NCBI GenBank assembly: GCA_965207065.1
Contig: OZ242260.1
Coordinates: 288,001 to 352,000, forward strand
Direction: 5' to 3'
From: a bacterium
Lineage (GTDB): Bacteria; UBA8248
DNA: 64,000 bases
The notes beneath the pieces were generated by a model. The model ran no database searches. It worked only from the letters and a program-made list of their open reading frames with translations, and had not been told where the DNA came from. Each line of letters begins with the position of its first letter. The stretch's first letter is position 1. A program made the position numbers and the translations under genes. Below are positions 27,318 through 40,930 of the stretch, piece by piece.

Positions 27318-28214
27318 CTAGATGCCTGCAAATCCCGTCCAGAAGATGAGATAAGAGGAAATGGCGTTCAGGTAGTTCGTGATCAGCAGGCCGCCCACGA
27401 GCAGAAGCATGGCGCTGCTCGCGATTTCCACCCCGCGGAAATAGCGCCGGAACGACTGATAAAACCGGAAAAAATACCCCACGCACAGGCCGCTCAGGAG
27501 AAACGGAACGCCCAGACCGGCGGAATAGCTCGCCAGGAGAATGACACCCTGCCCTGCCGTTTGCTGCGTTCCGGCGAACAGGAGAATGCTGCCCAGAATC
27601 GGGCCGACGCAGGGCGTCCAGCCCGCGGCGAAGGTGACGCCGACCAGCATGCTGCCGAGCCAGCCTGCGGGCTTGCTTTTCAGCATGATGCGGCTCTCCG
27701 AGGAGAGCACGGGCGCGAAAACGGCCACGAACACATAGAGCGCGATGGCCGAGAGCACCCCGCCCAGCGCGGGGTAGCCCATTTGCAGGCCCGCCAAGCC
27801 CGCCAGAAAAACCAGGGCGGCGAACGCGCCGCTCACGCCGGTCGGTTTTTCGGAGAAAAACCTCTGTACCCTGAATTCAAAAGCTCTATCGCCGACATAA
27901 AGACCGAACATGGTGATCATGATGCCGCCCAGCAGCCTGACGTGATCCTGATACTGAAACAATATATTTCCCACATAGGACACGCTGGCGCCCAACATGA
28001 TGAAGACGATAGAAAACCCTGCCACGAAGAACAGGGAATTCACCAGGATAACGCTTCTCACGCGGGCGGCCTCTCCGCTCTCTCTGATTTCCTCATAGGA
28101 CAAACCCGTTAAGTAGGAAAGATAACTGGGGACCAGCGGGAGGATGCACGGGGAGGCGAAACTGAGCACCCCCGCCGCGAAAGCCAGGCTCAAGGACACA
28201 TTTTCCGGGGCCAT
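27318..28214 (-). CDS. ccdA: Cytochrome c biogenesis protein CcdA, with an extra hydrophobic insertion
   Basis: SFASPCILPLVP and GWTPCVGPILG. Confidence 0.88.
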   Translation of the reverse strand: MAPENVSLSLAFAAGVLSFASPCILPLVPSYLSYLTGLSYEEIRESGEAARVRSVILVNSLFFVAGFSIVFIMLGASVSYVGNILFQYQDHVRLLGGIMITMFGLYVGDRAFEFRVQRFFSEKPTGVSGAFAALVFLAGLAGLQMGYPALGGVLSAIALYVFVAVFAPVLSSESRIMLKSKPAGWLGSMLVGVTFAAGWTPCVGPILGSILLFAGTQQTAGQGVILLASYSAGLGVPFLLSGLCVGYFFRFYQSFRRYFRGVEIASSAMLLLVGGLLITNYLNAISSYLIFWTGFAGI

Positions 28215-28342
28215 TGTTTTTCCTTATGAAAATCGCCGGCGGCCATGCGGATGATTCGGTTGATTCTACACAAGCCCAACAGGGTATTTTATCACAACAA
28301 AACTATGGACGAGATGTATTTGCCGGGATGAGGGAAACTCGA

Positions 28343-29665
28343 TCAGTTTCCACGCACCCCGTCCCCATCGAAGGGATTGTGGATACATATCGTATCATCA
28401 CGGCTCGGCCCCGTGGATATCAGCCATACCGGCCTGTCGGTCAACTCCTCGAGACCCTTGATGTAATCCTTCGCCCTGGAGGGCAGGGCGTCAAAATCCC
28501 TCATCCCCCCGGTGGTGGACATCCAGCCGGGAAATTCCGTATATACGGGCTTGCATTGTTCCAGAATCGAGGTCTCCGCCGGGAAGATCGTGACGCGCTC
28601 GCCCTCGTATTCATAGCCCACGCAAACCCGAATCGTCTCCTGATTATCGAGCACATCGAGCTTCGTCACCGCTATCGCGTCCATCCCGGCCACCTGGATG
28701 CAGTGGCGGGCCGCCACGGCGTCGAACCACCCGCACCGCCTGGGCCTGCCCGTCGTGGCGCCGAACTCACCACCCTCCTCACGCAGCTTCCCCGCTTCCA
28801 CATCTCCCATTTCGGAGGGAAACGGGCCTTGCCCCACCCGCGTGCAATACGCTTTCATGATCCCGAACACCGTGTTCAGCCGCCTGTAGGGCAGTCCCAG
28901 CCCGCTCATCGCCCCGCCCACGCCGGTGTTGCTCGACGTCACATAGGGATACGTGCCCATATCCAGGTCGAGGAGGATTCCCTGCGCGCCCTCGAGCAGG
29001 ATTTTCTTGTTCCCGTTCAACGCGTCGTTGATCTCCGCATCCGTGTTCCGCACATGGGGGCTCAGCTTTTTCCGCACCTGGGAGCACACGTCCAGGATAT
29101 GTGCCTCATCGAGTGCCTTCGTTTCCTCCTCATTCAGGTCGATACCGCCCAGAAGCCGCTTCTTGATGGCCAGGCTGACGCGGATGCGATCCCTCAGAAT
29201 CTTCTCATCGAACAGATCCGAAATCCGCACACCCAGCCTCGCCGCCTTGTCGGAGTAGGCCGGTCCGATGCCCCGGCCCGTCGTTCCGATGCGGTTGACG
29301 CCCAGGAGCTCTTCCATGTGGGAATCGAGAACCTTGTGGTAGGGCATGATGAGGTGCGCGCGCTTGCCGAGAACGAGATTCTCCCCGATCTCGATACCCA
29401 CGGAGCGGAGGTATTCAATCTCCTCCACCAGACCCAGCGGGTCCACCACCACGCCGGAGCCGATGATGCACTTGACCCTTGCGTGCAATATCCCGGTCGG
29501 TATCAGGTGGAGAATGTATTGATTCCCCTCGACGACCACGGTATGCCCCGCGTTCGCTCCGCCCTGGTAGCGGGCCACTACGTCCGCCTGACTCGCCAGC
29601 CAGTCGATGACTTTTCCTTTACCTTCATCACCCCACTGACCACCCAGAATCGCTAAAACGCTCAT
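28343..29665 (-). CDS. purA: Adenylosuccinate synthetase
   Basis: QWGDEGKGK, GGANAGHT, GTTGRGIGP, EGAQG, TTGRPRRCGW. Confidence 0.97.
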   Translation of the reverse strand: MSVLAILGGQWGDEGKGKVIDWLASQADVVARYQGGANAGHTVVVEGNQYILHLIPTGILHARVKCIIGSGVVVDPLGLVEEIEYLRSVGIEIGENLVLGKRAHLIMPYHKVLDSHMEELLGVNRIGTTGRGIGPAYSDKAARLGVRISDLFDEKILRDRIRVSLAIKKRLLGGIDLNEEETKALDEAHILDVCSQVRKKLSPHVRNTDAEINDALNGNKKILLEGAQGILLDLDMGTYPYVTSSNTGVGGAMSGLGLPYRRLNTVFGIMKAYCTRVGQGPFPSEMGDVEAGKLREEGGEFGATTGRPRRCGWFDAVAARHCIQVAGMDAIAVTKLDVLDNQETIRVCVGYEYEGERVTIFPAETSILEQCKPVYTEFPGWMSTTGGMRDFDALPSRAKDYIKGLEELTDRPVWLISTGPSRDDTICIHNPFDGDGVRGN

Positions 29666-30951
29666 CGGCTCTCATCCCTTCCGCCCATCCGGGCGAGAAT
29701 TTCCTCAATCGGGTATGCGCCCAAATCTTCCCCATCCGGCTCGAGGAGCCTGGCGCGGCCTCCCCTCTTTCCGCCGCGCTCGATGACGAGGCATTTCGAC
29801 ACGCCCGTCTCCCGCGCGTATTCCAGCGAGCCCGCGATGTCGCGGCGAATAATATCGCGCGCCACCCGCCAGCCCCGCGCCCTGAGTTTTCGGGAAAGAA
29901 CAATGCCCGAGCGCTTCTCTCGCGTGAGGTCGATGACGAGGAAATCCGTTCCGTTTCTATTCTCCGCCCCTTGCGTCACGAGTGGAAGCATCTGATTCAG
30001 ATCGACGGCGAAGCCTGTGCCGAGCGCGTCGCCGCCGTATAATCCCAGGAGCTTGTCGTAGCGGCCTCCACCGCATACGGGATATCCCGAACCTTCTACG
30101 AACCCCTCGAATATCACCCCCGTATAGTAGTCAAAATCCTTAAAATCGCACAAATCGAAGATGATGCGCTCAGAGAGGCCATACAACTCCAGTATCCGGA
30201 ATACTTTCAGCAGTTCCCGAACAGCGCCCCTGGCCGCCGGTGTTCTTGTCTTCTCCTCCACGTCTTGGAGCACTTCGACTCCGCCGAAACACTCCGGAAC
30301 CCGCTCGAGCAGTCCGGCGTCCGTCTTTTCGCGCGGCACTCCCTTGAGGAGGCTCGCCACGCCCGAGGAATCTCGGCGCCCAATCGCTTCGAGCAACTCG
30401 GCCCTTTGCGCGCCTTCCAGACCCAGGGCGTTCAGAATCCCGAGCAGGAATGCGCCATGACTCAAGGACATGCGGAAATTTTCCACCCCGTTCGCCTGCA
30501 GGCACTCCACGGCGATGGCTATCATCTCGGCGTCGGCTTCCAGAGAGACCAGGCCGATCAGCTCCACGCCCGCCTGCCAGAATTCACGCTGCAATTCCCC
30601 CGCTACGTGGGCGTAGCGAAAGACGTTCGCCGCATAGGAGAGGCGCAGAGGCCTGGGATGAGCGGCCAGAATCGTTCCGGCCGCTCTTGCGATCTGCGGC
30701 GTCATGTCCGCCCGGAGGGCCAGCAGTCCGCCGCTTTCCAGATCCACCATCCGGTAGGTCTGCGCTTCGAGAATCTCGGACCCCGCCCGGGGAACATAGA
30801 ACTCGAAGGCGGGCGTGAGGAGTTCCCGGAACCCCCACTGCTCGAATACGCCGAGCAGGCTCTCCTCCACCTCCCTCTTGTGTTTCGCTTCACCCGGCAG
30901 GAAAACGCGCGAACCACCCGGAATGGCCCGCGGGGAGGTTATCTGTCTCAT
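29662..30951 (-). CDS. hisZ: ATP phosphoribosyltransferase regulatory subunit
   Basis: LRADMTPQIAR, REFWQAGVELIG, YYTGVIF, GGGRYD; coupled to purA. Confidence 0.9.
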   Translation of the reverse strand: MRQITSPRAIPGGSRVFLPGEAKHKREVEESLLGVFEQWGFRELLTPAFEFYVPRAGSEILEAQTYRMVDLESGGLLALRADMTPQIARAAGTILAAHPRPLRLSYAANVFRYAHVAGELQREFWQAGVELIGLVSLEADAEMIAIAVECLQANGVENFRMSLSHGAFLLGILNALGLEGAQRAELLEAIGRRDSSGVASLLKGVPREKTDAGLLERVPECFGGVEVLQDVEEKTRTPAARGAVRELLKVFRILELYGLSERIIFDLCDFKDFDYYTGVIFEGFVEGSGYPVCGGGRYDKLLGLYGGDALGTGFAVDLNQMLPLVTQGAENRNGTDFLVIDLTREKRSGIVLSRKLRARGWRVARDIIRRDIAGSLEYARETGVSKCLVIERGGKRGGRARLLEPDGEDLGAYPIEEILARMGGRDESR

Positions 30952-32552
30952 GAAAAGCCCAACCTGACGAGGCAGGCGTCATAGACGTGGGGAATGGCGC
31001 GAACCTCTTCCATGACGGGTTCGGGCACCGGATCGTCGAGTATCAGGACGGCGACGGCCATGTCATGCTGCCACACGCGCCCCAGCTGCATGCCGGCGAT
31101 GTTGATGTTGTGATTCCCCAGCAGGGTGCCCATCTTTCCGATCATCCCGGGCCGGTCTTCGTTCCGGAATATGAGAAGATAGCCGCGTAACGCCACGTCG
31201 ACCGAATAGTCGTCTATCCGAACGATTCTGGGATCGTTCTTGCGGAGAAAAGTCCCCGCCACGGATCGCTCGCCCGAGTCGGTCTTCACGCGAAGCTCAA
31301 TCAGGTCCGTATAGAGGAGATTCTCCGTGCGAGTCGTCGTCCTCACATCGATGCCGCGCTCTTTCGCGAGCAGGAGGCCGTTCACCATATTCACGCGGAC
31401 GCTGGAGAGGAACCGGCCCAGCATCCCCTTGATGGCGGAGGCGGCCAGCGCCTTCATGGGTATGTCCACGGAGCCGCCATATACCACTTCGAGCGTCTGC
31501 AATCCCCCGCCCGCGAGCTGGGCCAGAAAATCTCCCAGGCGATCGGCCAGATCCAGATGGGGGCCGATTTGCTCGAGCACCTCGGGACTCAGGGAGGGCA
31601 GGTTCACCGCGTGGCCGACCACCCCTTCGGTCAGATACGCCACAACCTGTTTCGCCACGCTGATCGCCACGTTCTCCTGCGCCTCGGCGGTCGAGGCGCC
31701 CAGATGCGGCGTGCAGACGACGTCGTCTCGCCCGATGAGCGGGTCGTTCGGGTCGGGTGGCTCCTGTTGATACACGTCCACCGCCGCGCCCCCGACCTTT
31801 CCGCTGTCGAGCGCCTCGGCCAGCGCCTCCTCGTTGATGAGCCCCCCGCGCGCGCAGTTGATGATGCGAACGCCGTCTCGCATCAGGGCGATTTCCGCAG
31901 GGCCGATCAGGTTTCCCGTCTCGGTGTTCTTGGGCACATGCAGGGTGATGTAGTCGGACTTGGCCAGAAGCTCCTCGAAGTCCACCGGACTCACCCCGCG
32001 CTGGGAGAGCACTTCGGCGGAGATGTAGGGATCGTAGGCGAGTACGTTCATGCCCAGACTGCGGGCGAACGTCGCCGTCTGTGAACCCACGCGCCCCATC
32101 CCCACGACGCCCAGGGTTTTGGAAGATAGCTCGCTGCCCACAAAGCGGCTGCGCTCCCACTTCCCGCCCTTGAGGGAGGAGACAGCCGAGGGAATCTTGC
32201 GCGCCAGCGAGAACATCATGGCGATGGTGTGCTCCGCCGTGGTGATGACGTTGCCGTCGGGCGCGTTCGCCACCAGAATGCCGCGCATGCTGGCGGCCTC
32301 GAGGTCCACGTTGTCCACCCCGATGCCCGCGCGCGCGACCACCTTGAGCGTCTCGCCAGTACCCAGAAGCTCATCATCCACCTGCGTGCCGCTCCGGACG
32401 ATGAGCGCATCGGCGGTTTTGACGGCTTCGAGTATTTCCTCCCGCGAGGAGGAGGTGTAGTCGAGGACTTCAAAGCCCTCTTGGTCCTCAAGTATCTCAT
32501 GCGCCCTCGGCGAGAGCGGCTCGGCAATCAATACGCGAAACGTCTGGTTCAT
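30948..32552 (-). CDS. serA: D-3-phosphoglycerate dehydrogenase (ASB and ACT domains)
   Basis: RAGIGVDNVD, GMGRVG, INCARGG, TPHLGAST, DRPGMIG..NINIA. Confidence 0.95.
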   Translation of the reverse strand: MNQTFRVLIAEPLSPRAHEILEDQEGFEVLDYTSSSREEILEAVKTADALIVRSGTQVDDELLGTGETLKVVARAGIGVDNVDLEAASMRGILVANAPDGNVITTAEHTIAMMFSLARKIPSAVSSLKGGKWERSRFVGSELSSKTLGVVGMGRVGSQTATFARSLGMNVLAYDPYISAEVLSQRGVSPVDFEELLAKSDYITLHVPKNTETGNLIGPAEIALMRDGVRIINCARGGLINEEALAEALDSGKVGGAAVDVYQQEPPDPNDPLIGRDDVVCTPHLGASTAEAQENVAISVAKQVVAYLTEGVVGHAVNLPSLSPEVLEQIGPHLDLADRLGDFLAQLAGGGLQTLEVVYGGSVDIPMKALAASAIKGMLGRFLSSVRVNMVNGLLLAKERGIDVRTTTRTENLLYTDLIELRVKTDSGERSVAGTFLRKNDPRIVRIDDYSVDVALRGYLLIFRNEDRPGMIGKMGTLLGNHNINIAGMQLGRVWQHDMAVAVLILDDPVPEPVMEEVRAIPHVYDACLVRLGFS

Positions 32553-33688
32553 TGGTTGAACACCTCTTGCGCTGCGGTGAGGCCGCGCCCTCTATCCAGT
32601 GAATAGCCCAGATCGGCCAGGGTCGACTCCAGCGCGCCGACCGCGGCCAGCACGTCGGAGGAATCCACGTAACCCAGGTGACCGATACGGAAAATTCTGC
32701 CGCTCAGGACATCCTGACCGCCGGCGATGGTCACCCCGTGCGCATCCTGCATCCTCAGGGGAATCGCCTTCCCGTCCACTCCCTCCGGCACGCAAACGGC
32801 GGTGAGGGACTCGCTCTTCAAGTCCCGTGGGAATATGGTCATCCCCAATGCCTCGACGGCCGCCCCCGTCGCCCGCGCCAGCAGCGCATGCCGCGCGAAG
32901 ACGTTCTCCAGCCCCTCCTCGCGCATCATGTCGAGCGCGACCGCCAGACCCGCCAGAAGCGAGATCGCAGGGGTCCAGGCGGTGGTGTTCTTCATCTGGC
33001 TCTTTCGCTCGATTTCGAGGTCGAAGTAATACTTCGGCGAGGTCGATTCCGAAGCGGCGCGCCAAGCCCGCTCGCTCAGCCAGACGAAGGCCAGCCCCGG
33101 CGGGAGCATGAGCGCCTTCTGGCTCCCCGTGATCACGGCGTCCAGGTCCCAATCCTCGGTCTTGAGATCGTACACGCCAAGAGCCGTGATGGCGTCCACC
33201 ACCACAAGCGTATCGGGCGATCGCTCGCGCACCACTCTCGCGACGGCCTGCGTGTCGTGCTTGGCGCCCGTGGAGGTCTCGCTCGCCTGCATCAGCAGGG
33301 CCTTGTGCCCTCCCCGCTCGAGGCGCGCCTCCAGAACATTCAGATCGACCGAACGGCCCCATTCCACCTCCAGGACGTCCGCCTCGACCCCGTACGCCGC
33401 GCAAAGCTCCGTCCAGCGCTCGCCGAACTTGCCGCCCTCGATCACGAGCGCGGAATCGCCCGGCGAGAGAAGGTTCGCCACCGCCGCCTCCATGCCGCCC
33501 GTACCCGAAGCGGCGAGGGTGATGACGTCGCCGCTCGTCTGGAAGAGCCATTCGAGGCCGCGCCGCGCCCCTTCGAAGTGCGCCTCGAACTCCCGTGTCC
33601 GGTGGTGAATCAGGGGCCGCGCCATCGCTTCGAGCACCCGGTGGGGAACCGGCGTGGGACCGGGGGCCATGAGGTGGTGCTTGTTCAT
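32549..33688 (-). CDS. Alanine-glyoxylate/serine-pyruvate family PLP aminotransferase
   Basis: PGPTP, SGTGGMEAA, ETSTG, DAIT, GSQKALMLPPG, FRIGHLG. Confidence 0.9.
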   Translation of the reverse strand: MNKHHLMAPGPTPVPHRVLEAMARPLIHHRTREFEAHFEGARRGLEWLFQTSGDVITLAASGTGGMEAAVANLLSPGDSALVIEGGKFGERWTELCAAYGVEADVLEVEWGRSVDLNVLEARLERGGHKALLMQASETSTGAKHDTQAVARVVRERSPDTLVVVDAITALGVYDLKTEDWDLDAVITGSQKALMLPPGLAFVWLSERAWRAASESTSPKYYFDLEIERKSQMKNTTAWTPAISLLAGLAVALDMMREEGLENVFARHALLARATGAAVEALGMTIFPRDLKSESLTAVCVPEGVDGKAIPLRMQDAHGVTIAGGQDVLSGRIFRIGHLGYVDSSDVLAAVGALESTLADLGYSLDRGRGLTAAQEVFNQ

Positions 33689-33892
33689 TTCTCGCTCTTT
33701 CCCAAATGTGTGTCGTTTCGGACGGACGCGCGGCTACGCCCCAAGGATATACCATCCCCCGCCAAACCCCTCAAGCGATATCGTCTGGAAAGCGGGGCTA
33801 TGCGTAAAGGAACGAGCGCAAGAAACGGATAAACGCGCCTCTTTTCGTGAATATTTATAAGGCTGTTCGTGAACGTCCTTGCCACAGGAAGC

Positions 33893-34023
33893 GGGCGCTT
33901 CACGACGCGCCCCTATGGGAGAATCGTCGTAGGGGCAAGGCCCCTGTGCCTGCCCGGCCCTGCGTCTTTCCTACGAGGGACAACCACGGGGGGCAAGACA
34001 ACCCAGAAAGGTTGTCCTGCTAC
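33893..34023. repeat. Degenerate GTAG-type REP cluster
   Basis: GGGCGCTTCACGACGCGCCCCTAT, GTAGGGGCAAGGCCCCTGTGCCTGCCC (33929), GACAACCCAGAAAGGTTGTCCTGCTAC. Confidence 0.6.
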
Positions 34024-34049
34024 AAAACCACCACAACATATCCACACAC

Positions 34050-34104
34050 AAAAAAACCGGGGGGCCGAAGCCCCCCGGTCGTCGTCGCGTCAGGTAAGGA
34101 CGCG
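34050..34104 (-). terminator. Intrinsic terminator of porin A
   Basis: ACCGGGGGG-CTTCGG-CCCCCCGGT followed by a U tract on the minus strand, preceded by a CGCGTC/GACGCG hairpin. Confidence 0.9.
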
Positions 34105-34120
34105 TACGTCCTTCGTGCTG

Positions 34121-35338
34121 CTAGAAGATGTGGCGCAGCGTCCAGCCGACCGCCCAGCCGTCTTCCGCTTCAGGACCATCGACCGCTCTGCCGTAATCGC
34201 CGCGCAGAATAACGGCGCCCACACCGCGAAGCTCGAGATTCGAGTGGATCTTCCACTTGAAGCCGGCGTTGAGCTCGGTGCCGTATTCCTTCGCGTCCAT
34301 CGTGTCCGCCGCGAGGGAAGGTTCGGCGGAATTGTAAAGGGATACGCCGCCACCCAGCGTCAAGGTCTTGCTGACTTTGAAATCGGCCAGCCCCTCGATC
34401 ACGGTCGCGCCGTTCAAGCTGCGCAGATGCACGCTTCTGATGTTATTGCCCAGAGTCGTCCAGCGGCGCGAAGTCATGATGTGGCCGCCCACGAACCAGC
34501 CGGAGCCACCTTCCTGTGGCGTATTGAAGCGGCCGTCTTCGTTGGCTTTGGTGCCGTCATTGCCGGAGAGCATGGTGAGGTTGCCGCTCAGCTTCAGCTT
34601 GCCGAGACTCGCGGAAGTCCTCAGCAGGACCGCCCAACCAGAGAGTTCTGCGCCGCTTGAGAGGTCACCCTCCTGGATGACGACAGAACCGTTCACGTTG
34701 AGGATGCCCACCTTGGTCTTGGCGTTCAAACCGAGGAAGCTGTAGTCATAGCCGCCGGCCGCTGCGTCTCTCGAGTTGGCCACCCACGGCGAAACCGTGA
34801 GAGTGGGGGACAATTTAAAGCTCAGGCTGGCGTAATAATCCTTCGCATCGTCGTTTTCTGGGCCGGCGTCTTCATTCGCGCTGGTCATGAATGCGCTCAG
34901 CGAGATGTTCTTGCTCAGCTTGCCGTAGAGCGCAATGCCAGGCTCACGATGACGGCCGCTGCTGTCGTAAATTTCCTTGTCCGGAGAGAAGTAGTCCGTC
35001 CGGCCCATGCGGATGCGGAGCGCGCTGCCCGGAACCGCGAAGTCGAGCACCCAGCGGTTGACGCCGACGGTCTGCCGGCCGGGGCCGATTGCGAAGCCAC
35101 CGTTCGCGCTTACGAACTCGGGCTCCCACACGGCCGTAACGGCGCCGTTCTTCGCCGTGAAGCGCGGACGAATGAGCGCGTCCAGGTATCTATCCTTGTC
35201 TCCATCGTCTCCTTCAACGGCTTCACTGGAGCCACGCACCCGGTAGAAGCCGCTGAACTTCAGATCGGCAGCGTACGTGGGCGCAGTAAATGATACGACG
35301 AGCGCCAGCGCAAATAGAGCTAACAGAATTTTCCTCAT
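34121..35338 (-). CDS. Outer-membrane porin-like beta-barrel (porin A)
   Basis: Signal peptide ..AAD, amphipathic beta strands, terminal LRHIF, GAGGAG RBS. Confidence 0.8.
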   Translation of the reverse strand: MRKILLALFALALVVSFTAPTYAADLKFSGFYRVRGSSEAVEGDDGDKDRYLDALIRPRFTAKNGAVTAVWEPEFVSANGGFAIGPGRQTVGVNRWVLDFAVPGSALRIRMGRTDYFSPDKEIYDSSGRHREPGIALYGKLSKNISLSAFMTSANEDAGPENDDAKDYYASLSFKLSPTLTVSPWVANSRDAAAGGYDYSFLGLNAKTKVGILNVNGSVVIQEGDLSSGAELSGWAVLLRTSASLGKLKLSGNLTMLSGNDGTKANEDGRFNTPQEGGSGWFVGGHIMTSRRWTTLGNNIRSVHLRSLNGATVIEGLADFKVSKTLTLGGGVSLYNSAEPSLAADTMDAKEYGTELNAGFKWKIHSNLELRGVGAVILRGDYGRAVDGPEAEDGWAVGWTLRHIF

Positions 35339-35405
35339 GTGTATTTCTCCTCATCGAGGTTTCAAAAAAATGTTGCCGCCTTCCTTCGATTTAATGTCTT
35401 GGTTG

Positions 35406-35462
35406 TTAAATGCTTCTGCATCTGTGCTTCGTCGTCTGCAACAGGGCTTCCCGTTCTCGCAT
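35406..35462 (-). CDS. Putative leader peptide MREREALLQTTKHRCRSI
   Basis: GGAGAGGGGGTG SD-like sequence before ATG; homologous to the uORF at 38527. Confidence 0.5.
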   Translation of the reverse strand: MREREALLQTTKHRCRSI

Positions 35463-35554
35463 CACCCCCTCTCCTCAATGCTGCCCCGTACGTCGACAAG
35501 TTTCTATCGAGCGATCTGATTATTGCCGCTTATATAGACACTATCCCGCTAAAG

Positions 35555-35584
35555 AAAATAGTCATTCCATTCCCCATTTCTCAA
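35555..35584 (-). promoter_or_regulatory. Putative porin A promoter
   Basis: Minus strand TTGAGA, 18 nt, TATTTT, at the position homologous to the porin B promoter. Confidence 0.45.
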
Positions 35585-35869
35585 AGAATAGAGATGATAT
35601 GATTTAAAAGCTAAAACGCCGACAATCATGCGCATGGATGCGCTCATATAATATAAATATATGTTTTTAATTGATTTATAATTACATTTTCTTCCGCGTT
35701 GCCCCTTGCGCCATCGCCAGATTTGTGCTGGAATGCGCTCTCAGTTGATGCAGGACGTATGCGTTTTGATGACGTATTTTGACGGGAGCGCCGCGCCGGA
35801 GCATGCGGATGGGCGTTCCCGCAGACCGCCGCAGGCATGCGGTTTGATGACACACCGGAGGGAGGAACC

Positions 35870-37054
35870 ATGCCGAGGAGAAGCGAATTCAGGCTCACCA
35901 AGCGCGCCGTAGACGCGCTCGAAACCGAACGCCGCGACGCCCTGTTCTGGGACCGGGATCTGGCCGGATTCGGGGTGCGCGTCCATGCCACGGGACGGAA
36001 GGCTTTTGTCGCGCAATCGAGAGGCCCCGGGGGGATAAAACGCGTGACCCTGGGCCGTGACGGGGAGATGTCGTGCGAGGAGGCGAGGAGGCAGGCCGCC
36101 ATCGTCATCGACCGCATTAAAAGCGGCGAGGACCCGGTCCCGAAGCCGCCTGCGGCGGAGCCGACAGTGGCCGTGCTCGCCGAGCGCTTCATGCGCACTT
36201 ACGTGGAGAGACGCCTCAAGCCGGGCAGCGTCGTGGAGTACCGCACCATGCTGGACAAATATATCCTGCCGGCCCTGGGGGGGATGGCGCTGTCCGGGGT
36301 CAGGCGGGCGCAAATCTCCGCGTTTCATCACGGCATGCGCGGCATGCCGAGCCGGGCGAACACGTCGCTCCACGTCCTCTCCCGGATGTTCAGCCTGGCC
36401 GAGGCGTGGGACCTCGTCCCGCCCGGACGGAATCCGTGCAGGGGAGTGCCGCTATACAGAACGCGCTCGCGCGAGCGGTTCCTGACGACGGAGGAATACC
36501 GCCGCCTGGGCCGGACGTTAAAAGAGGCCGAGGCGGACGGCTCGATCTGGCCGCCCGCGATCAAGGCGATCCGGCTGCTCATGCTGACCGGATGCCGGAG
36601 GAACGAGATACTGAACCTTAAGTGGGACGATGTGGACCGCACGGCGGGCGTTCTGAGGCTGAAGGACGCCAAGGCGGGCCCCCGCATGGTTCCCCTGACG
36701 AATCCCGTGCGCAGGGTTCTCGAGACGCTGCCCCGGAAGCGGGGCGAGCCGTGGGTGATCCTCGGGCAAAAACCGGGCCGGAACCTGCAGAGCCTCTATT
36801 ACTACTGGCGGCCCATACGGGAGCGGGCGGGTCTCTCCGACGTGCGGATCCATGACCTTCGCCACTCGTTCGCTTCGCGTGCGCTGGCGCTGGGCGAGAG
36901 CCTCTACACGATCGGCAAGCTGTTGGGACACGCGACGGTGCCGACGACGGCGCGCTACACGCATCTGATGCTCCGGGCCGAGAAGGATGCGGCCTCCCGT
37001 GTGGGGGGAAGCATCGGCGTTCACCTGACGAACGAGAAGGAGGAACTTGAATGA
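35870..37054 (+). CDS. Tyrosine recombinase/integrase 1 with N-terminal arm-binding (DUF4102-like) domain
   Basis: GGAGG RBS; WDRDLAGFGVRV; TGCRRNE, DAKAG, HDLRHSFAS, LGH, TARY. Confidence 0.92.
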   Translation: MPRRSEFRLTKRAVDALETERRDALFWDRDLAGFGVRVHATGRKAFVAQSRGPGGIKRVTLGRDGEMSCEEARRQAAIVIDRIKSGEDPVPKPPAAEPTVAVLAERFMRTYVERRLKPGSVVEYRTMLDKYILPALGGMALSGVRRAQISAFHHGMRGMPSRANTSLHVLSRMFSLAEAWDLVPPGRNPCRGVPLYRTRSRERFLTTEEYRRLGRTLKEAEADGSIWPPAIKAIRLLMLTGCRRNEILNLKWDDVDRTAGVLRLKDAKAGPRMVPLTNPVRRVLETLPRKRGEPWVILGQKPGRNLQSLYYYWRPIRERAGLSDVRIHDLRHSFASRALALGESLYTIGKLLGHATVPTTARYTHLMLRAEKDAASRVGGSIGVHLTNEKEELE

Positions 37055-38220
37055 AGAAGCCGGGCACGATGGTGCTGTCGAGCCGGATGGTGGAGAAGTT
37101 TGTCGTGGAAAAAGACACGGTGTACTGGGATAGTTACGTCACCGGCTTCGGCGTCAGGGTGTATCCGAGCGGGAGCAAGGTCTACATCGCCCAGGCGCGG
37201 GGGCCCGGGGGGCCGAAGCGCGTGACGATAGGCCGCCACGGGGTGATCAACGCGGATGAGGCGAGGAGGCGCGCGGCGCTCGTCGTCAATCGCATCAAGT
37301 CGGGCGAGGAAGCGGTTCCGAAACCGATGAAGCCCGTGGCCGGTCCCACGGTGGCCGAAGCCGCCGCGCGGTATCTCGCCGAGTACGTGGAGGTGCGCTG
37401 TAAGCCGCACACCGCCGCCATGACCCGGTCTCTGCTCGGAAGGCGCATCCTGCCCGCCCTGGGCGGGACGCCGCTCGTGGTGGTGGAGCGCGCGCAGGTG
37501 GCGGAACTGCACCAGAGCATGCACGAGACGCCCCCGACGGCGAACAGGACAGTCGGCATCCTCTCCGCGCTATACCGGTATGCCGAGAGGTGGGGCCTCA
37601 TTCCCGAGGGAGCGCCGAACCCTTGCCGCGCCGTCGTCAAATTCCCCAAGCGGCAGGGGGAGCGTTTTTTGACGGATGAGGAGTTCATCCGCCTGGGACG
37701 CACGCTCGACGAGGTGGAGAGCGGTAAGCCGAAGTGCGCGAACGCGGTGGCGGCGATCAGGCTTCTGGCCCTGACGGGTTGCCGGAAGAGCGAGATACTC
37801 ACCCTGCGCTGGGAGAACGTGGCGCTGGAAGAAGGTGAATTGAGACTGCCCGATTCCAAGACGGGCGCCCGCGTGGTCTCGCTCCCGCCGCAGGCGGTCG
37901 CGCTCCTGGCCGCCCTTCCCCGGGAGGAGGGGAATCCCTGGGTAATTCGCGGCAGGAAGCCTGGCGTGCGCCTGAGGAACATCTACGGCGTCTGGTACTC
38001 CGTCCGCGCTCGGGCGGATCTCGATGACGTGCGGCTCCACGATCTCCGCCATTCGTTCGCGTCGCGGGCGCTCGCGCTGGGCGAGAGTCTTCCGATGATC
38101 GGCAGGCTCCTGGGGCACAGCCGGATCGAGACCACGGCGCGCTACGCGCACCTCGCGCGCGATACCGCCCACGAGGCGGCCGAGCGGGTTGCGGCGAGCA
38201 TCGAGAAAGACATACTATGA
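37051..38220 (+). CDS. Tyrosine recombinase/integrase 2, paralog of integrase 1
   Basis: 4-bp overlap with int1; TGCRKSE, DSKTG, HDLRHSFAS, LGH, TARY. Confidence 0.92.
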   Translation: MKKPGTMVLSSRMVEKFVVEKDTVYWDSYVTGFGVRVYPSGSKVYIAQARGPGGPKRVTIGRHGVINADEARRRAALVVNRIKSGEEAVPKPMKPVAGPTVAEAAARYLAEYVEVRCKPHTAAMTRSLLGRRILPALGGTPLVVVERAQVAELHQSMHETPPTANRTVGILSALYRYAERWGLIPEGAPNPCRAVVKFPKRQGERFLTDEEFIRLGRTLDEVESGKPKCANAVAAIRLLALTGCRKSEILTLRWENVALEEGELRLPDSKTGARVVSLPPQAVALLAALPREEGNPWVIRGRKPGVRLRNIYGVWYSVRARADLDDVRLHDLRHSFASRALALGESLPMIGRLLGHSRIETTARYAHLARDTAHEAAERVAASIEKDIL

Positions 38221-38400
38221 GAGGCAATCGACGGGGTGGACGAAAAAGAATTGATTTGCCTGACCGGATTCGTGGCTCGTTTTTTGGAAAATTTCTGGAT
38301 TCGGGGTTTGACAAATCAGGGTATCTTCGCTAATGCTATTGATATGGGGAATAGGACGACTGATTCCGAAAATTTTTTGCGAATTCACATGGGAAGTTTG

Positions 38401-38430
38401 TTGACAAAACATGAATTTTCCGTCTATTCT
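38401..38430 (+). promoter_or_regulatory. Sigma70-like promoter of porin B
   Basis: TTGACA, 18 nt, TATTCT; a second TTGACA lies at 38308. Confidence 0.65.
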
Positions 38431-38526
38431 TTTGTGAAGTAATGAATATCACATAAGCGGGAAACTGCTGGTTCGCTCGATAGAACCTTAGTCGAATTAC
38501 GGGGTGGTGCTTACGGAGAGGGGGTG

Positions 38527-38598
38527 ATGCGGGAGAGGGAAGCCCTGTTGCAGACGACGAAGCACGGATACAGAAGCATTGGACAACCAGGACATTAA
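38527..38598 (+). CDS. Putative leader peptide MREREALLQTTKHGYRSIGQPGH
   Basis: SD-like GGAGAGGGGGTG; synonymous differences relative to the copy at 35406-35462. Confidence 0.5.
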   Translation: MREREALLQTTKHGYRSIGQPGH

Positions 38599-38652
38599 AT
38601 CGAAGGAATACGGCAACATTTTTTTGTGAAACCTCAATGAGGAGAAATACAC

Positions 38653-39936
38653 ATGAAGAAACTTCTGTTAGCACTATTCGCGATTGCGCTCGTCGTGGCG
38701 TTTACCGCGCCCTCGTATGCGGCCGACTTCAAAATGAAAGGTTTCTACCGTGTTCGCGCTTTCAGTGGCAGCCTCAATCAGGCCGATAATGATAACGATG
38801 ACGGATCCGCCAGTGGTATCGACTCGCTGATAAGGCCGAACTTCTTGACGAGTGTCGATGGCGGCAAAATCAAGGCCAGATGGGAAATCGACTGGTATGA
38901 AAACGATAACTCCGCGAACGCGAATGCGGTCTGGGGACAAAACGGCGGCAGCCGCATCGGCGTGGGAACGAACCGCTGGCATATCGATTTCGCGATTCCG
39001 GGCAGTGCGCTCCGCATGCGCTTGGGCCGCGAGGACTACACCTCCCCGGACAAGGAAATTTTCGACTCCGCTGGGGCCAATCGTAAGCCTGGCATCGGGG
39101 TCTATGGCAAGCTCAGCAAGAACATGTCGCTCAGCATGTTCATGGTTCGGGCTGGGGCGAGCGGCTCAAACCGCACAGTCGAGACTGAGGATAAAAACAA
39201 AGACAGCTACTTCGCGGCTTTGGGCATCAAGGTTTCCCCGACGACCACTCTTACTCCTTGGGTGGCCCTGCACCGCGACGGCGAGCATAAATCCCTCACG
39301 TACGCTGCCCTGCACGCCAAGGCGAAAGTCGGCATCTTCAGCGTGAACGCCACCGGCGTTACGGTGGGTGGTGATTATTCAGATACAATGGATGCTTCCG
39401 GCTGGGCGTTTCTGTTGAGAAACACAGCCAGCCTGGGCAAATTGAAGCTCATGGCCAACCTGACGATGCTCTCGGGCGATGACAACGAAACTGACAAAGA
39501 AGTAGGCGAGTTCAGTCTATTGTTTCCCAACGCGGGCGATATCGTCAGTGGTGTTCTCATTTCGGGCCGCGGCAACATCATGCTCATTGACGCGAATGAA
39601 CGCATCAGGGGGAACACAAGCAATGGGAAGCTGACGAAGAACAAAGGAAAAATGGGGTTGACAAACGGCGCGGTCATCGGCGAACTCGGACTTAAGTATC
39701 AGGTCAGCAAGACCTTGAATCTGGGCGCCGGGATATACATCTACCAGTCTGCGGAAGATGACAGTGAAGGCGACAGTGACTTCGGCACCGAGTTCGACTT
39801 CGGCATGCAATGGAAGATTTATTCCAATCTGGCGCTTCGCGCGGGATTCGCGTACTTGGCGGCCGGCGACTACGGCACGAACAACGACAAGGAAGACTCC
39901 TGGATGACCGCAGTTTCTCTGCGCCACATCTTCTAG
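38653..39936 (+). CDS. Outer-membrane porin-like beta-barrel (porin B), paralog of porin A
   Basis: Near-identical signal peptide; shared blocks GFYRVR, PGSALR, SPDKEI, YGKLSKN, LTMLSG; terminal LRHIF. Confidence 0.8.
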   Translation: MKKLLLALFAIALVVAFTAPSYAADFKMKGFYRVRAFSGSLNQADNDNDDGSASGIDSLIRPNFLTSVDGGKIKARWEIDWYENDNSANANAVWGQNGGSRIGVGTNRWHIDFAIPGSALRMRLGREDYTSPDKEIFDSAGANRKPGIGVYGKLSKNMSLSMFMVRAGASGSNRTVETEDKNKDSYFAALGIKVSPTTTLTPWVALHRDGEHKSLTYAALHAKAKVGIFSVNATGVTVGGDYSDTMDASGWAFLLRNTASLGKLKLMANLTMLSGDDNETDKEVGEFSLLFPNAGDIVSGVLISGRGNIMLIDANERIRGNTSNGKLTKNKGKMGLTNGAVIGELGLKYQVSKTLNLGAGIYIYQSAEDDSEGDSDFGTEFDFGMQWKIYSNLALRAGFAYLAAGDYGTNNDKEDSWMTAVSLRHIF

Positions 39937-39951
39937 GAGCTTGATTGACTT

Positions 39952-40009
39952 CGCGTCCTCACCTGACGCGACCATAACCGGGGGGCTTCGGCCCCCCGGT
40001 TTTTTTTTT
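39952..40009 (+). terminator. Intrinsic terminator of porin B
   Basis: Same hairpin as porin A (cUUCGg loop) followed by a long T run. Confidence 0.9.
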
Positions 40010-40199
40010 GTGTGTGGACAACTGTCATAATCGAGTACAAGAGCAGAAAATTCTCCGTCTCTCGCTCCTGTGCCGCTTATGCCTTTTCTTATTCGTGCCT
40101 GTCTGTCGCTGGATCACCATGTACCGTTTTCGGTACGCGCGGGGCATGGGGACGCCGCCATTATTGAGTCGTCGGTTATCCCGACAAAAAACCGGCCGC

Positions 40200-40930
40200 G
40201 ACGCCCTCCATTGGCGCCGGCGATGTCTCCACGGCAGACGCCAGAACCTGATCGCTGGCTTCCGCGTCACGACGCAGATGGCCTTTTGTGCGATTCCCGC
40301 AATCTGGCGAGATGGCGGTTGAAGAGTGCTTTCGTCTCCCTCGTTCCACCAGTTCCATTGCCAGACGCCTTCAATCAGGATGGAACGCAGGCGCTTCTGT
40401 CCGACAGGCCGGAGCTGGGCGCGGACCAAGCTGTCGCCGCTATGGCGGACGACGGGCGAAAGGCTCAGACAGGAGGCCACCTTCTTGACGCGGTTGAAGC
40501 GCTCCGGCGCAAATATCTCGGCCAAGAACCTCGCCGACCCCGCCAGGTTGCATCAAGCATTCGTAACGGTCCGGATGCAGACGCTTCGTCTCTCGCCTGA
40601 CCTCACGTTTCAAGAACCGATGTTCTTCCTGGCAATACTCGCGGATCATTGATATTCAGGGCATCGTTCATGCTTAGGCGCCAGGGGTAGCGCCTCAAGA
40701 TCGTCCCCTACGGTACTTACCCATTGCCTCGTGCCCAGCGGCTCCTCGATGCCCGATGTCGGCAGAAATTCCTTTATCTTCTGCTTGATCCCTGGTCCCG
40801 GCCTAGGACATCCGCTTGCAACGCCGTACAAGTGCTCGATTACCTTCTTCATTGAGAGAGGAAACAGCTACGGACTCCCGGCGAAGCAAATGGCCGGTTG
40901 CTCCGCGTCGATTCGGTCGTTTCAACCTGC
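40200..40930 (-). pseudogene. Heavily frameshifted IS110-family transposase remnant
   Basis: Fragments NDRIDAEQ, PGGVG, AEIFAPERF..LSPVVRHSG..GQKRLRSILIEGVW, KAICVVTRK. Confidence 0.7.

Follow-up and report, generated by a model that had tools for sequence, protein, structure and literature searches.

The short ORF in two porin leaders looks like a by-product of a conserved untranslated leader adjoining a DNA inversion switch

Introduction

Two porin-like genes, porL and porR, diverge from each other in the window (the whole analysed stretch of 64,000 nt of contig OZ242260.1), with two tandem recombinase genes between them. The sequence GGAGAGGGGGTGATG is common to the leaders of both genes, and each leader contains a short ORF beginning with MREREALLQTTKH. 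In an earlier note, made from the letters of the sequence, this ORF was taken for a translated uORF under purifying selection, acting as a regulatory leader peptide, a ribosome-based mRNA stabiliser or a small protein. The question raised by the locus is whether the conservation of the leader belongs to the peptide, to the RNA or to the DNA. The features considered are listed in Table 1.

Table 1. Features of the two-porin locus (positions in the window)
Feature	Position	Strand	Remarks
porL, porin-like	34121..35338	-	405 aa; NCBIfam DESULF_POR1 38.7 bits, below cut-off; orthologues 84-88%; transcribed
Left porin 5' UTR	35339..35578	-	Putative start; RNA contigs reach 35565/35566
Left short ORF	35406..35462	-	18 codons + TAA; translation MREREALLQTTKHRCRSI*; inside porin mRNA according to RNA contigs
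Anti-SD complement GGAGAGGGGGTGAT, left leader	35461..35474	-	Same basis as the right copy
Left inversion core TCTATTCTTT	35583..35592	-	Same joint as the right core
Invertible segment	35593..38422	.	2,830 bp; inverted junction contig in X3; orientation opposite to 6 related genomes
int1, putative tyrosine recombinase	35837..37054	+	Pfam Phage_integrase + Arm-DNA-bind_3; syntenic, 72-95% identity
int2, putative tyrosine recombinase	37051..38220	+	Pfam Phage_integrase + Arm-DNA-bind_3; syntenic, 70-96% identity
Putative sigma-70-like promoter	38401..38430	+	-35 TTGACA 38401-38406 in the segment; -10 TATTCT 38425-38430 in the core
Right inversion core TCTATTCTTT	38423..38432	+	Joint 35592/38422 on opposite strands; X1 contigs break here
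Right porin 5' UTR	38437..38652	+	Start predicted from the -10 box; aligned with 26 other leaders
Anti-SD complement GGAGAGGGGGTGAT, right leader	38515..38528	+	Pairs with 16S 3' tail; 14-pair run, G.U allowed
Right short ORF	38527..38598	+	23 codons + TAA; translation MREREALLQTTKHGYRSIGQPGH*
Porin's own SD GAGGAG	38639..38644	+	8 nt before porR ATG; AGGAGAAA invariant in 27/27
porR, porin-like	38653..39936	+	427 aa; NCBIfam DESULF_POR1 77 bits, below cut-off; 145 homologues
3' UTR and terminator module	39952..40018	+	Mirrored at 34041-34104; 55 nt, 93% identical

Results

The two leader copies of the window

Reading of both copies confirmed that each leader carries an SD-like sequence, an ATG and a short ORF, with GGAGAGGGGGTG located directly 5' of both ORFs (38515-38526 on the plus strand and 35463-35474 on the minus strand). 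According to their translations, the two copies agree in their first 13 residues, as described earlier; CGG/CGA, GAG/GAA and AGG/CGG are the only differences in the first 13 codons, and all three are synonymous. The common downstream in-frame TAA was likewise found, the second in-frame TAA of the left copy being aligned with the stop of the right one.

The leaders show 91% identity across 112 nt, whereas for porL and porR the identity is 49% at aligned residues and 58% at 103 four-fold sites; thus, the likeness of the leaders is far above chance. The short ORF adds nothing past this nucleotide identity. No further leader copies were found in the genome that contains the window (G000), which has these two only. 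The right leader of this genome is devoid of approximately 31 nt present in other leaders. In addition, the strand opposite the leaders contains ORFs of 65-112 codons (35339-35602 and 35410-35607 on the plus strand, 38336-38674 on the minus strand) that mirror one another because of the inverted repeat. Indels of lengths other than multiples of three in the genus alignment argue against these ORFs being genes.

Fate of the short ORF in related genomes

A DNA search for the leader was performed in 61 genomes, including 22 of the same genus and 14 from other genera of the family. The leader was present in 17 of the 22 genomes of the genus and in none of the 14 genomes of the other genera. The sole matches outside the family (G051 and G057) were 20-30 nt long and at chance level, and were rejected. 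The same applies to two extra matches from a motif scan of 42 family genomes, neither of which is a porin leader: one represents an ordinary SD before an rpsD-like gene, and the other is located within a CDS.

The leader alignment comprised 27 copies, orthologous or paralogous, from 18 genomes of the genus. An ATG occupies the aligned start position in 22 copies and is replaced in the other five by ACG (G006 and G004), ACC (both G015 copies) or GTT (G022). The ATG is followed immediately by TGA in both G014 copies, the frame is shifted after codon 3 in G008 and G003, and a premature stop is found at codon 9 in G017b. Furthermore, a 21-nt in-frame deletion has removed 7 codons in G010. The 13-codon pattern MRER[EG][AV]L[LS]Q[TA]TK[HY] is kept in 16 of the 27 copies; past codon 13 the sequences are unrelated, and the total ORF length varies from 1 to 37 codons across the copies. 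Nucleotide conservation continues through the frameshifts in the 27-copy alignment.

The selection on codons was assessed in the 19 copies that have the ATG and an unbroken stretch of 39 nt. The 13 distinct variants in these copies include 5 synonymous, 7 non-synonymous and 1 stop, with an expected synonymous share of 0.26-0.32 (P(5 or more of 13) = 0.21-0.35). They are distributed over the codon positions as 5:3:5, and in the other two reading frames 4 and 3 variants would be "synonymous". A metagenome scan with a conserved 24-mer yielded 2 contigs only, both of which keep the ORF start and contain further amino-acid changes; these copies were picked by exact match and are hence close relatives.

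The suggestion that MREREALLQTTKH... opens a small protein or a regulatory leader peptide under purifying selection draws on the two G000 copies, with their identical first 13 residues and three synonymous differences, and on the similar 13-residue start in 16 of the 27 genus copies. However, 10 of the 27 copies have suffered start loss, frameshift or stop, with the 7-codon deletion in an eleventh; the nucleotides are conserved where the frame is not, and the C-terminal parts are wholly different. Five ATG losses and two frameshifts, changes that the earlier note itself had named as contrary to its reading, were thus found in orthologous or paralogous leaders, and the codon analysis revealed no synonymous excess and no third-position bias or other codon periodicity, so a peptide under purifying selection is unsupported. 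It is considered very improbable. As judged from the aligned copies, the short ORF appears to be incidental to an untranslated porin leader that is itself conserved, and it does not constitute a conserved coding unit.

A complement of the 16S rRNA 3' end is the most invariant part of the leader

The longest invariant runs of the 27-copy alignment are GAGGGGG and AGGAGAAA. The latter is the porin's own SD, the spacing of which falls in the usual peak of the genome. GAGGGGG, invariant in 27 of 27 copies, is part of GAGAGGGGGTGA(T), the most invariant block of the leader. The 3' end of the 16S rRNA of the same genome, read directly, is ...GGATCACCTCCTTTCT, and GGAGAGGGGGTGAT forms 13-14 consecutive pairs with this tail, 2-3 of them G.U. 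Runs of at least 14 pairs occur at 16 places in 4.48 Mb (both strands), both leaders included; many of the remaining places fall in G-rich repeats, in IS copies or in the rRNA gene. The complement is located approximately 125 nt upstream of the porin ATG, within the transcribed leader.

The scan for such runs also surfaced a repeated G-rich element, GGGGGTAGGGGGGGGTGGTTTT..., at several places of the same genome, and a stretch TGGCGAAGGGGGAGGTGGTTCACG... repeated at five or more places, which looks like IS copies. Examples of the repeat positions are G000:C1 about 2148704, 3210171, 3937824 and 524122.

The leader is better conserved than the silent sites of its genes, with an identity of 0.79 vs 0.62 at four-fold sites in 193 pairs whose porins have less than 55% shared residues, and of 0.86 vs 0.79 in 66 orthologue-like pairs. 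Porins with only 44-50% shared residues have this leader in common.

The 16S complement includes the A and T of the short-ORF ATG, with 2 nt separating the G-run from this codon. For comparison, 2,201 likely true starts were collected (an ATG followed by 200 or more codons and preceded, within 15 codons, by an in-frame stop). GGAGG is found at most 2 nt before the ATG in 7 of 208 of such starts (~3%), with a peak at 4-10 nt, and GGGGG is found at this distance in 6 of 75. AGGAG lies 8 nt upstream of the short-ORF ATG, an ordinary spacing, in 7 of the 27 copies.

These data bear on the reading in which translation of the short ORF matters as a process and its peptide does not: a mini-ORF or start-stop would load ribosomes on the leader and in this way protect the mRNA or feed ribosomes to the porin start. 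Real initiation at this ATG is possible given its presence in 22 of 27 copies and in both metagenome copies and the well-spaced AGGAG in 7. The ATG-TGA of both G014 copies would then be a minimal start-stop, the spread of 1-37 codons is what is expected for an irrelevant sequence, and the leader is transcribed. It may be the start codon, rather than 16S pairing, that maintains the conserved GAT. On the other hand, the ATG is missing in five copies, where ACG, ACC and GTT are poor starts, most copies lack the upstream AGGAG, and the 2 nt from the invariant core to the ATG is a spacing seen in approximately 3% of the likely true starts. On balance, translation of a mini-ORF is regarded as rather unlikely.

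Transcription and folding of the leader

The conserved porin 5' UTR has a length of approximately 215-240 nt. RNA contigs of two metatranscriptome studies (X4 and X8) cover 34339-35566 and 34539-35565 and are ~99% identical to the window. They span from the porL CDS through the whole left leader and end without a loose end, which is solid evidence that the left leader, including the ORF, is part of the porin mRNA. The contigs end approximately 20 nt downstream of the -10-like TATTCT at 35590-35585, giving a weak hint that the 5' end of the left mRNA lies just downstream of this box. No RNA contigs were found on porR, the right leader or the integrase genes in X4 or X8. The RNA runs that hold the left porin carry the label sponge metagenome. 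Another promoter-like site of the left leader (TTGAGA-18-TATTTT, 35584-35555) was rejected: it is not conserved in the genus, and the RNA contigs reach upstream of its -10 box.

An Rfam search of 33500-40500 in E-value mode revealed no match in the leaders. Single-sequence folding compared with shuffles gave z-scores of -1.71 and +0.33, no better than shuffled sequences. The consensus proposed by RNAalifold is weak, comprising 23 pairs, and its covariation term is -0.26 kcal/mol; compensatory changes were observed in 3 of the 23 pairs and come mostly from the two G015 copies. In this consensus, ACGGGGC/GCCCUGU and GUCG/CGAC close a large loop that contains the SD-like block. According to these predictions, the leader is not a strongly folded RNA. 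CsrA and Hfq homologues were not found in the genome, which weakens the best-known protein-based alternatives.

The leader could also be a platform for another trans-acting factor, such as a small RNA or an RNA-binding protein co-regulating all porin paralogues, or a structured RNA element, with the SD likeness being incidental. Conserved blocks outside the SD-like core, e.g., GGTTCGCTCGATAGAACCTTGTCGAC and GGCAACATTTTTT, are consistent with this, as are the predicted loop around the SD-like block with its three compensated pairs and the use of one leader for porins with 44-50% shared residues. The folding energy equal to that of shuffles, the near-zero covariation, the lack of an Rfam match in the searched region and of CsrA or Hfq homologues, and the rarity in the genome of a 14-nt match to the 16S rRNA argue against it, and such a platform appears unlikely.

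Porin genes and their 3' module

No Pfam match was obtained for porL or porR, and the names given to homologous proteins point to uncultured Nitrospinae. Behind the porin genes, a 3' module of approximately 56-65 nt consists of a small hairpin and a GC-rich terminator, AACCGGGGGGC-loop-GCCCCCCGGTT-T-run. Most porin copies of the genus (L002-L057) are followed by this module at 89-96% identity, irrespective of their barrel variant, which means that very different barrels are bracketed by the same expression signals. In the window, the 3' modules enclose the entire two-porin unit as an outer inverted repeat. In both X1 and X3, a high-depth contig (depth 71-84) contains an extra A behind 38959 in porR; it probably represents a related porin of another, more abundant strain.

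An inversion switch between the porins

The two leaders adjoin the inversion cores from outside and thus flank the invertible segment. The homology of the two ends of the segment starts exactly at TCTATTC. In X3, a DNA run of another sample, a 376-nt contig with a depth of 4.1 covers 38133-38422 and continues from 35592 on the opposite strand; the 10 letters that fit both sides of this joint are the core TCTATTCTTT. In X1, which covers 99% of the window, the contigs are interrupted at each core, where 50-nt pieces with depths of 10 and 9 form the bridge; the adjacent sequence has depths of 16-18.5. These contig depths suggest that X1 represents a population of mixed orientation.

The int1-int2 pair is located between two divergent porins in G011, G012, G013, G014 and G017, and in G021 as far as its contigs reach; the sequence of G005 contains int2 and one porin only. 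In total, seven genomes are syntenic, G005 and G021 in part. The 3' end of int2 faces the flank with homologues of the window genes 27318-33755 in all six related genomes for which a flank is available, but faces the opposite flank in G000. The junction contig and this difference in orientation among species indicate that the segment 35593-38422 inverts through site-specific recombination, moving a -35 box between porL and porR.

The TTGACA-18-TATTCT before the right leader has 10 of 12 matches and is a putative promoter. Among the 27 copies, an outward-facing TTGACA is located 17-18 nt before TATTCT in 8 of 8 ends on the int2 side, whereas on the int1 side no such -35 box is present in 7 of 7 ends; it is also missing from one further int1-side end on a metagenome contig. 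The switch would carry the -35 box from one porin to the other, and the -10 box would stay with each porin. The inversion switch is well supported; its inverted form is directly represented by one contig, and the recombinase and promoter activities are putative, being assigned from sequence features. Since the switch moves the -35 box between the porins, the leader may be viewed as a common expression module for it to dock on.

Several other observations were made in this region. A degenerate second promoter module, TTGACA-17-TAATGC followed by a GGGGAATAGG block, is found inside the segment (38308-38363); in other copies this block is located downstream of the core, in correspondence with the ~31 nt lacking from the right leader of G000. 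G017 contains a third integrase homologue just past the second porin (L033, 13848-14387), 67% identical to int1 over 180 aa and cut by the contig end. The contigs of X1 and X3 in the region 36450-37900 have depths of 79-236, probably because other community members carry related integrases. Several high-depth joints within the integrase genes (e.g., 37185 to 36469), with 90% likeness, were rejected as probably derived from integrases of other organisms.

With cores and recombinases so close, the conservation might reside in the DNA, either as accessory (arm-type) integrase sites or as stretches of homology that permit gene conversion among porin cassettes. Both recombinases contain Arm-DNA-bind_3, the leaders directly adjoin the cores, each cassette has a conserved 3' module, and the ORF-region variants are all common to the two G014 leaders and, likewise, to the two G015 leaders. 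Nevertheless, 10 of the 27 leaders have no integrase homologue in ~1.4 kb upstream and keep the leader, so it is not merely a recombination site; the observed junction falls at the 10-bp core and not inside the long repeat, and the two SD-like sequences are the most invariant blocks. An explanation at the DNA level is therefore thought highly unlikely. The variants shared by L004/L022 (G014, including ATG-TGA) and by L018/L028 (G015) suggest gene conversion between copies within G014 and within G015. The G015 copies are separated by 21 kb, and the sequence examined shows no integrase.

Discussion

A 30S-capturing leader as the favoured reading

The preferred reading, to which we assign about even chances, is that the leader is a 30S-capturing element similar to STAB-SD, with 30S binding and its effect deduced from the pairing and its conservation. 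The core of the leader would be the 13-14-nt complement of the organism's own 16S 3' tail, the ATG being merely its 3' end. This complement may capture 30S subunits, or whole ribosomes that hardly move on, and the captured subunits would shield or activate the long, largely unstructured, purine-rich leader of the porin mRNA, in a mode of action like that of a STAB-SD 5' stabiliser or a standby site. Many further conserved blocks of the leader are unexplained by 30S capture. Of the interpretation offered in the earlier note, the peptide part has fallen, and the ribosome-based mRNA stabiliser remains as the best fit, the invariant part of the leader being the anti-SD complement.

A search for the RNase_J_C domain (PF17770) in the single-contig genome, which is 96% complete, gave no hit, whereas homologues of RNase E/G and RNase Y are present. 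As no RNase J was found, the nuclease hindered by such an element would have to differ from RNase J1. Obstacles in the 5' UTR also hinder RNase E.

Comparison with known systems

The STAB-SD of cry3A in Bacillus thuringiensis is described as an SD-like sequence located ~129 nt upstream that binds 30S and directs no initiation (PMC4113751). The mechanism given there is a block of RNase J1 (PMC4113751, citing Agaisse & Lereclus 1996, Mathy et al. 2007). On this description, the porin leader is similar in having an SD-like sequence that lies deep in a long 5' UTR (here ~125 nt from the true start codon), can pair with the 16S 3' end and is apparently not placed for productive initiation, as its atypical spacing from the short-ORF ATG and the loss of this ATG in five copies suggest, and in preceding a very highly expressed gene. 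Unlike cry3A as described there, the porin leader belongs to a diderm without a detected RNase J, its function is deduced, and its complement is longer (13-14 nt) and overlapped by an ATG.

[quoted passage not shown] By this account, they are the closest described systems, in which a promoter is placed before another variable surface-protein gene. The porin locus differs from them, so far as they are described in that source, in comprising two porin genes and not lipoprotein families, in having two tandem arm-domain integrases inside the segment and a crossover between the -35 and -10 boxes, and in a host that appears to be sponge-associated, unlike the Mycoplasma pathogens.

Invertible promoter elements are also known in E. 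coli fimS (FimB/FimE) and Salmonella Hin/fljBA, where they act as an ON/OFF switch for one operon. The fim system has two paralogous tyrosine recombinases, FimB and FimE, which are not known to have arm-binding domains, and hin sits inside its own invertible segment. Unlike both, the porin locus would toggle two divergent genes with a split promoter. In the sap S-layer locus of Campylobacter fetus, a promoter lies on an invertible segment between opposed cassettes with conserved 5' regions, and inversion proceeds by RecA-dependent homologous recombination in long 5' repeats, whereas the junction of the porin locus is at a 10-bp core beside dedicated recombinases. Attenuator leaders, such as trpL and ermCL, likewise place a short ORF, equipped with an SD, ahead of the gene under control. 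In contrast to the porin leaders, which conserve none of these features, they retain the reading frame, the key codons and a coupled alternative RNA structure.

A narrow search of the open-access literature found nothing that joins an invertible promoter, a porin and a tyrosine recombinase, and, among the papers listed, none that joins Nitrospinota and phase variation.

Conclusions

Taken together, the data allow a tentative joint reading, which we hold to be possible: a sponge-associated Nitrospinae-like genus would possess a two-porin toggle with a sigma-70 promoter split by the inversion core, a common 5' leader and 3' terminator, and a 30S-parking complement. In this scheme, the -35 box would ride on a 2.8-kb segment encoding two arm-domain integrases, and 30S parking would protect the mRNA in a cell with RNase E/G and RNase Y and without RNase J. 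Both features, the leader element and the inversion switch, are of known kinds; the novelty lies in the lineage, in porins as the targets, in the splitting of the promoter and in the lack of a detected RNase J. If the joint reading is true, the STAB-SD-like principle would operate outside Firmicutes and against a different nuclease.

The locus also calls for caution in that two copies with only synonymous differences do not prove a coding uORF; the 27 relatives place the constraint on the RNA or DNA. It provides a candidate ribosome-capturing leader element in a phylum without genetics, and the leader and terminator modules offer precise handles (the core, the -35 box and the SD-like block) for assays in a surrogate host. 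In addition, there is direct metagenomic evidence that an uncultured symbiont flips a putative promoter between two very different outer-membrane channels, the identity of which is 44-49%. Such flipping of porins plausibly varies a target of phage or host recognition, or alters permeability.
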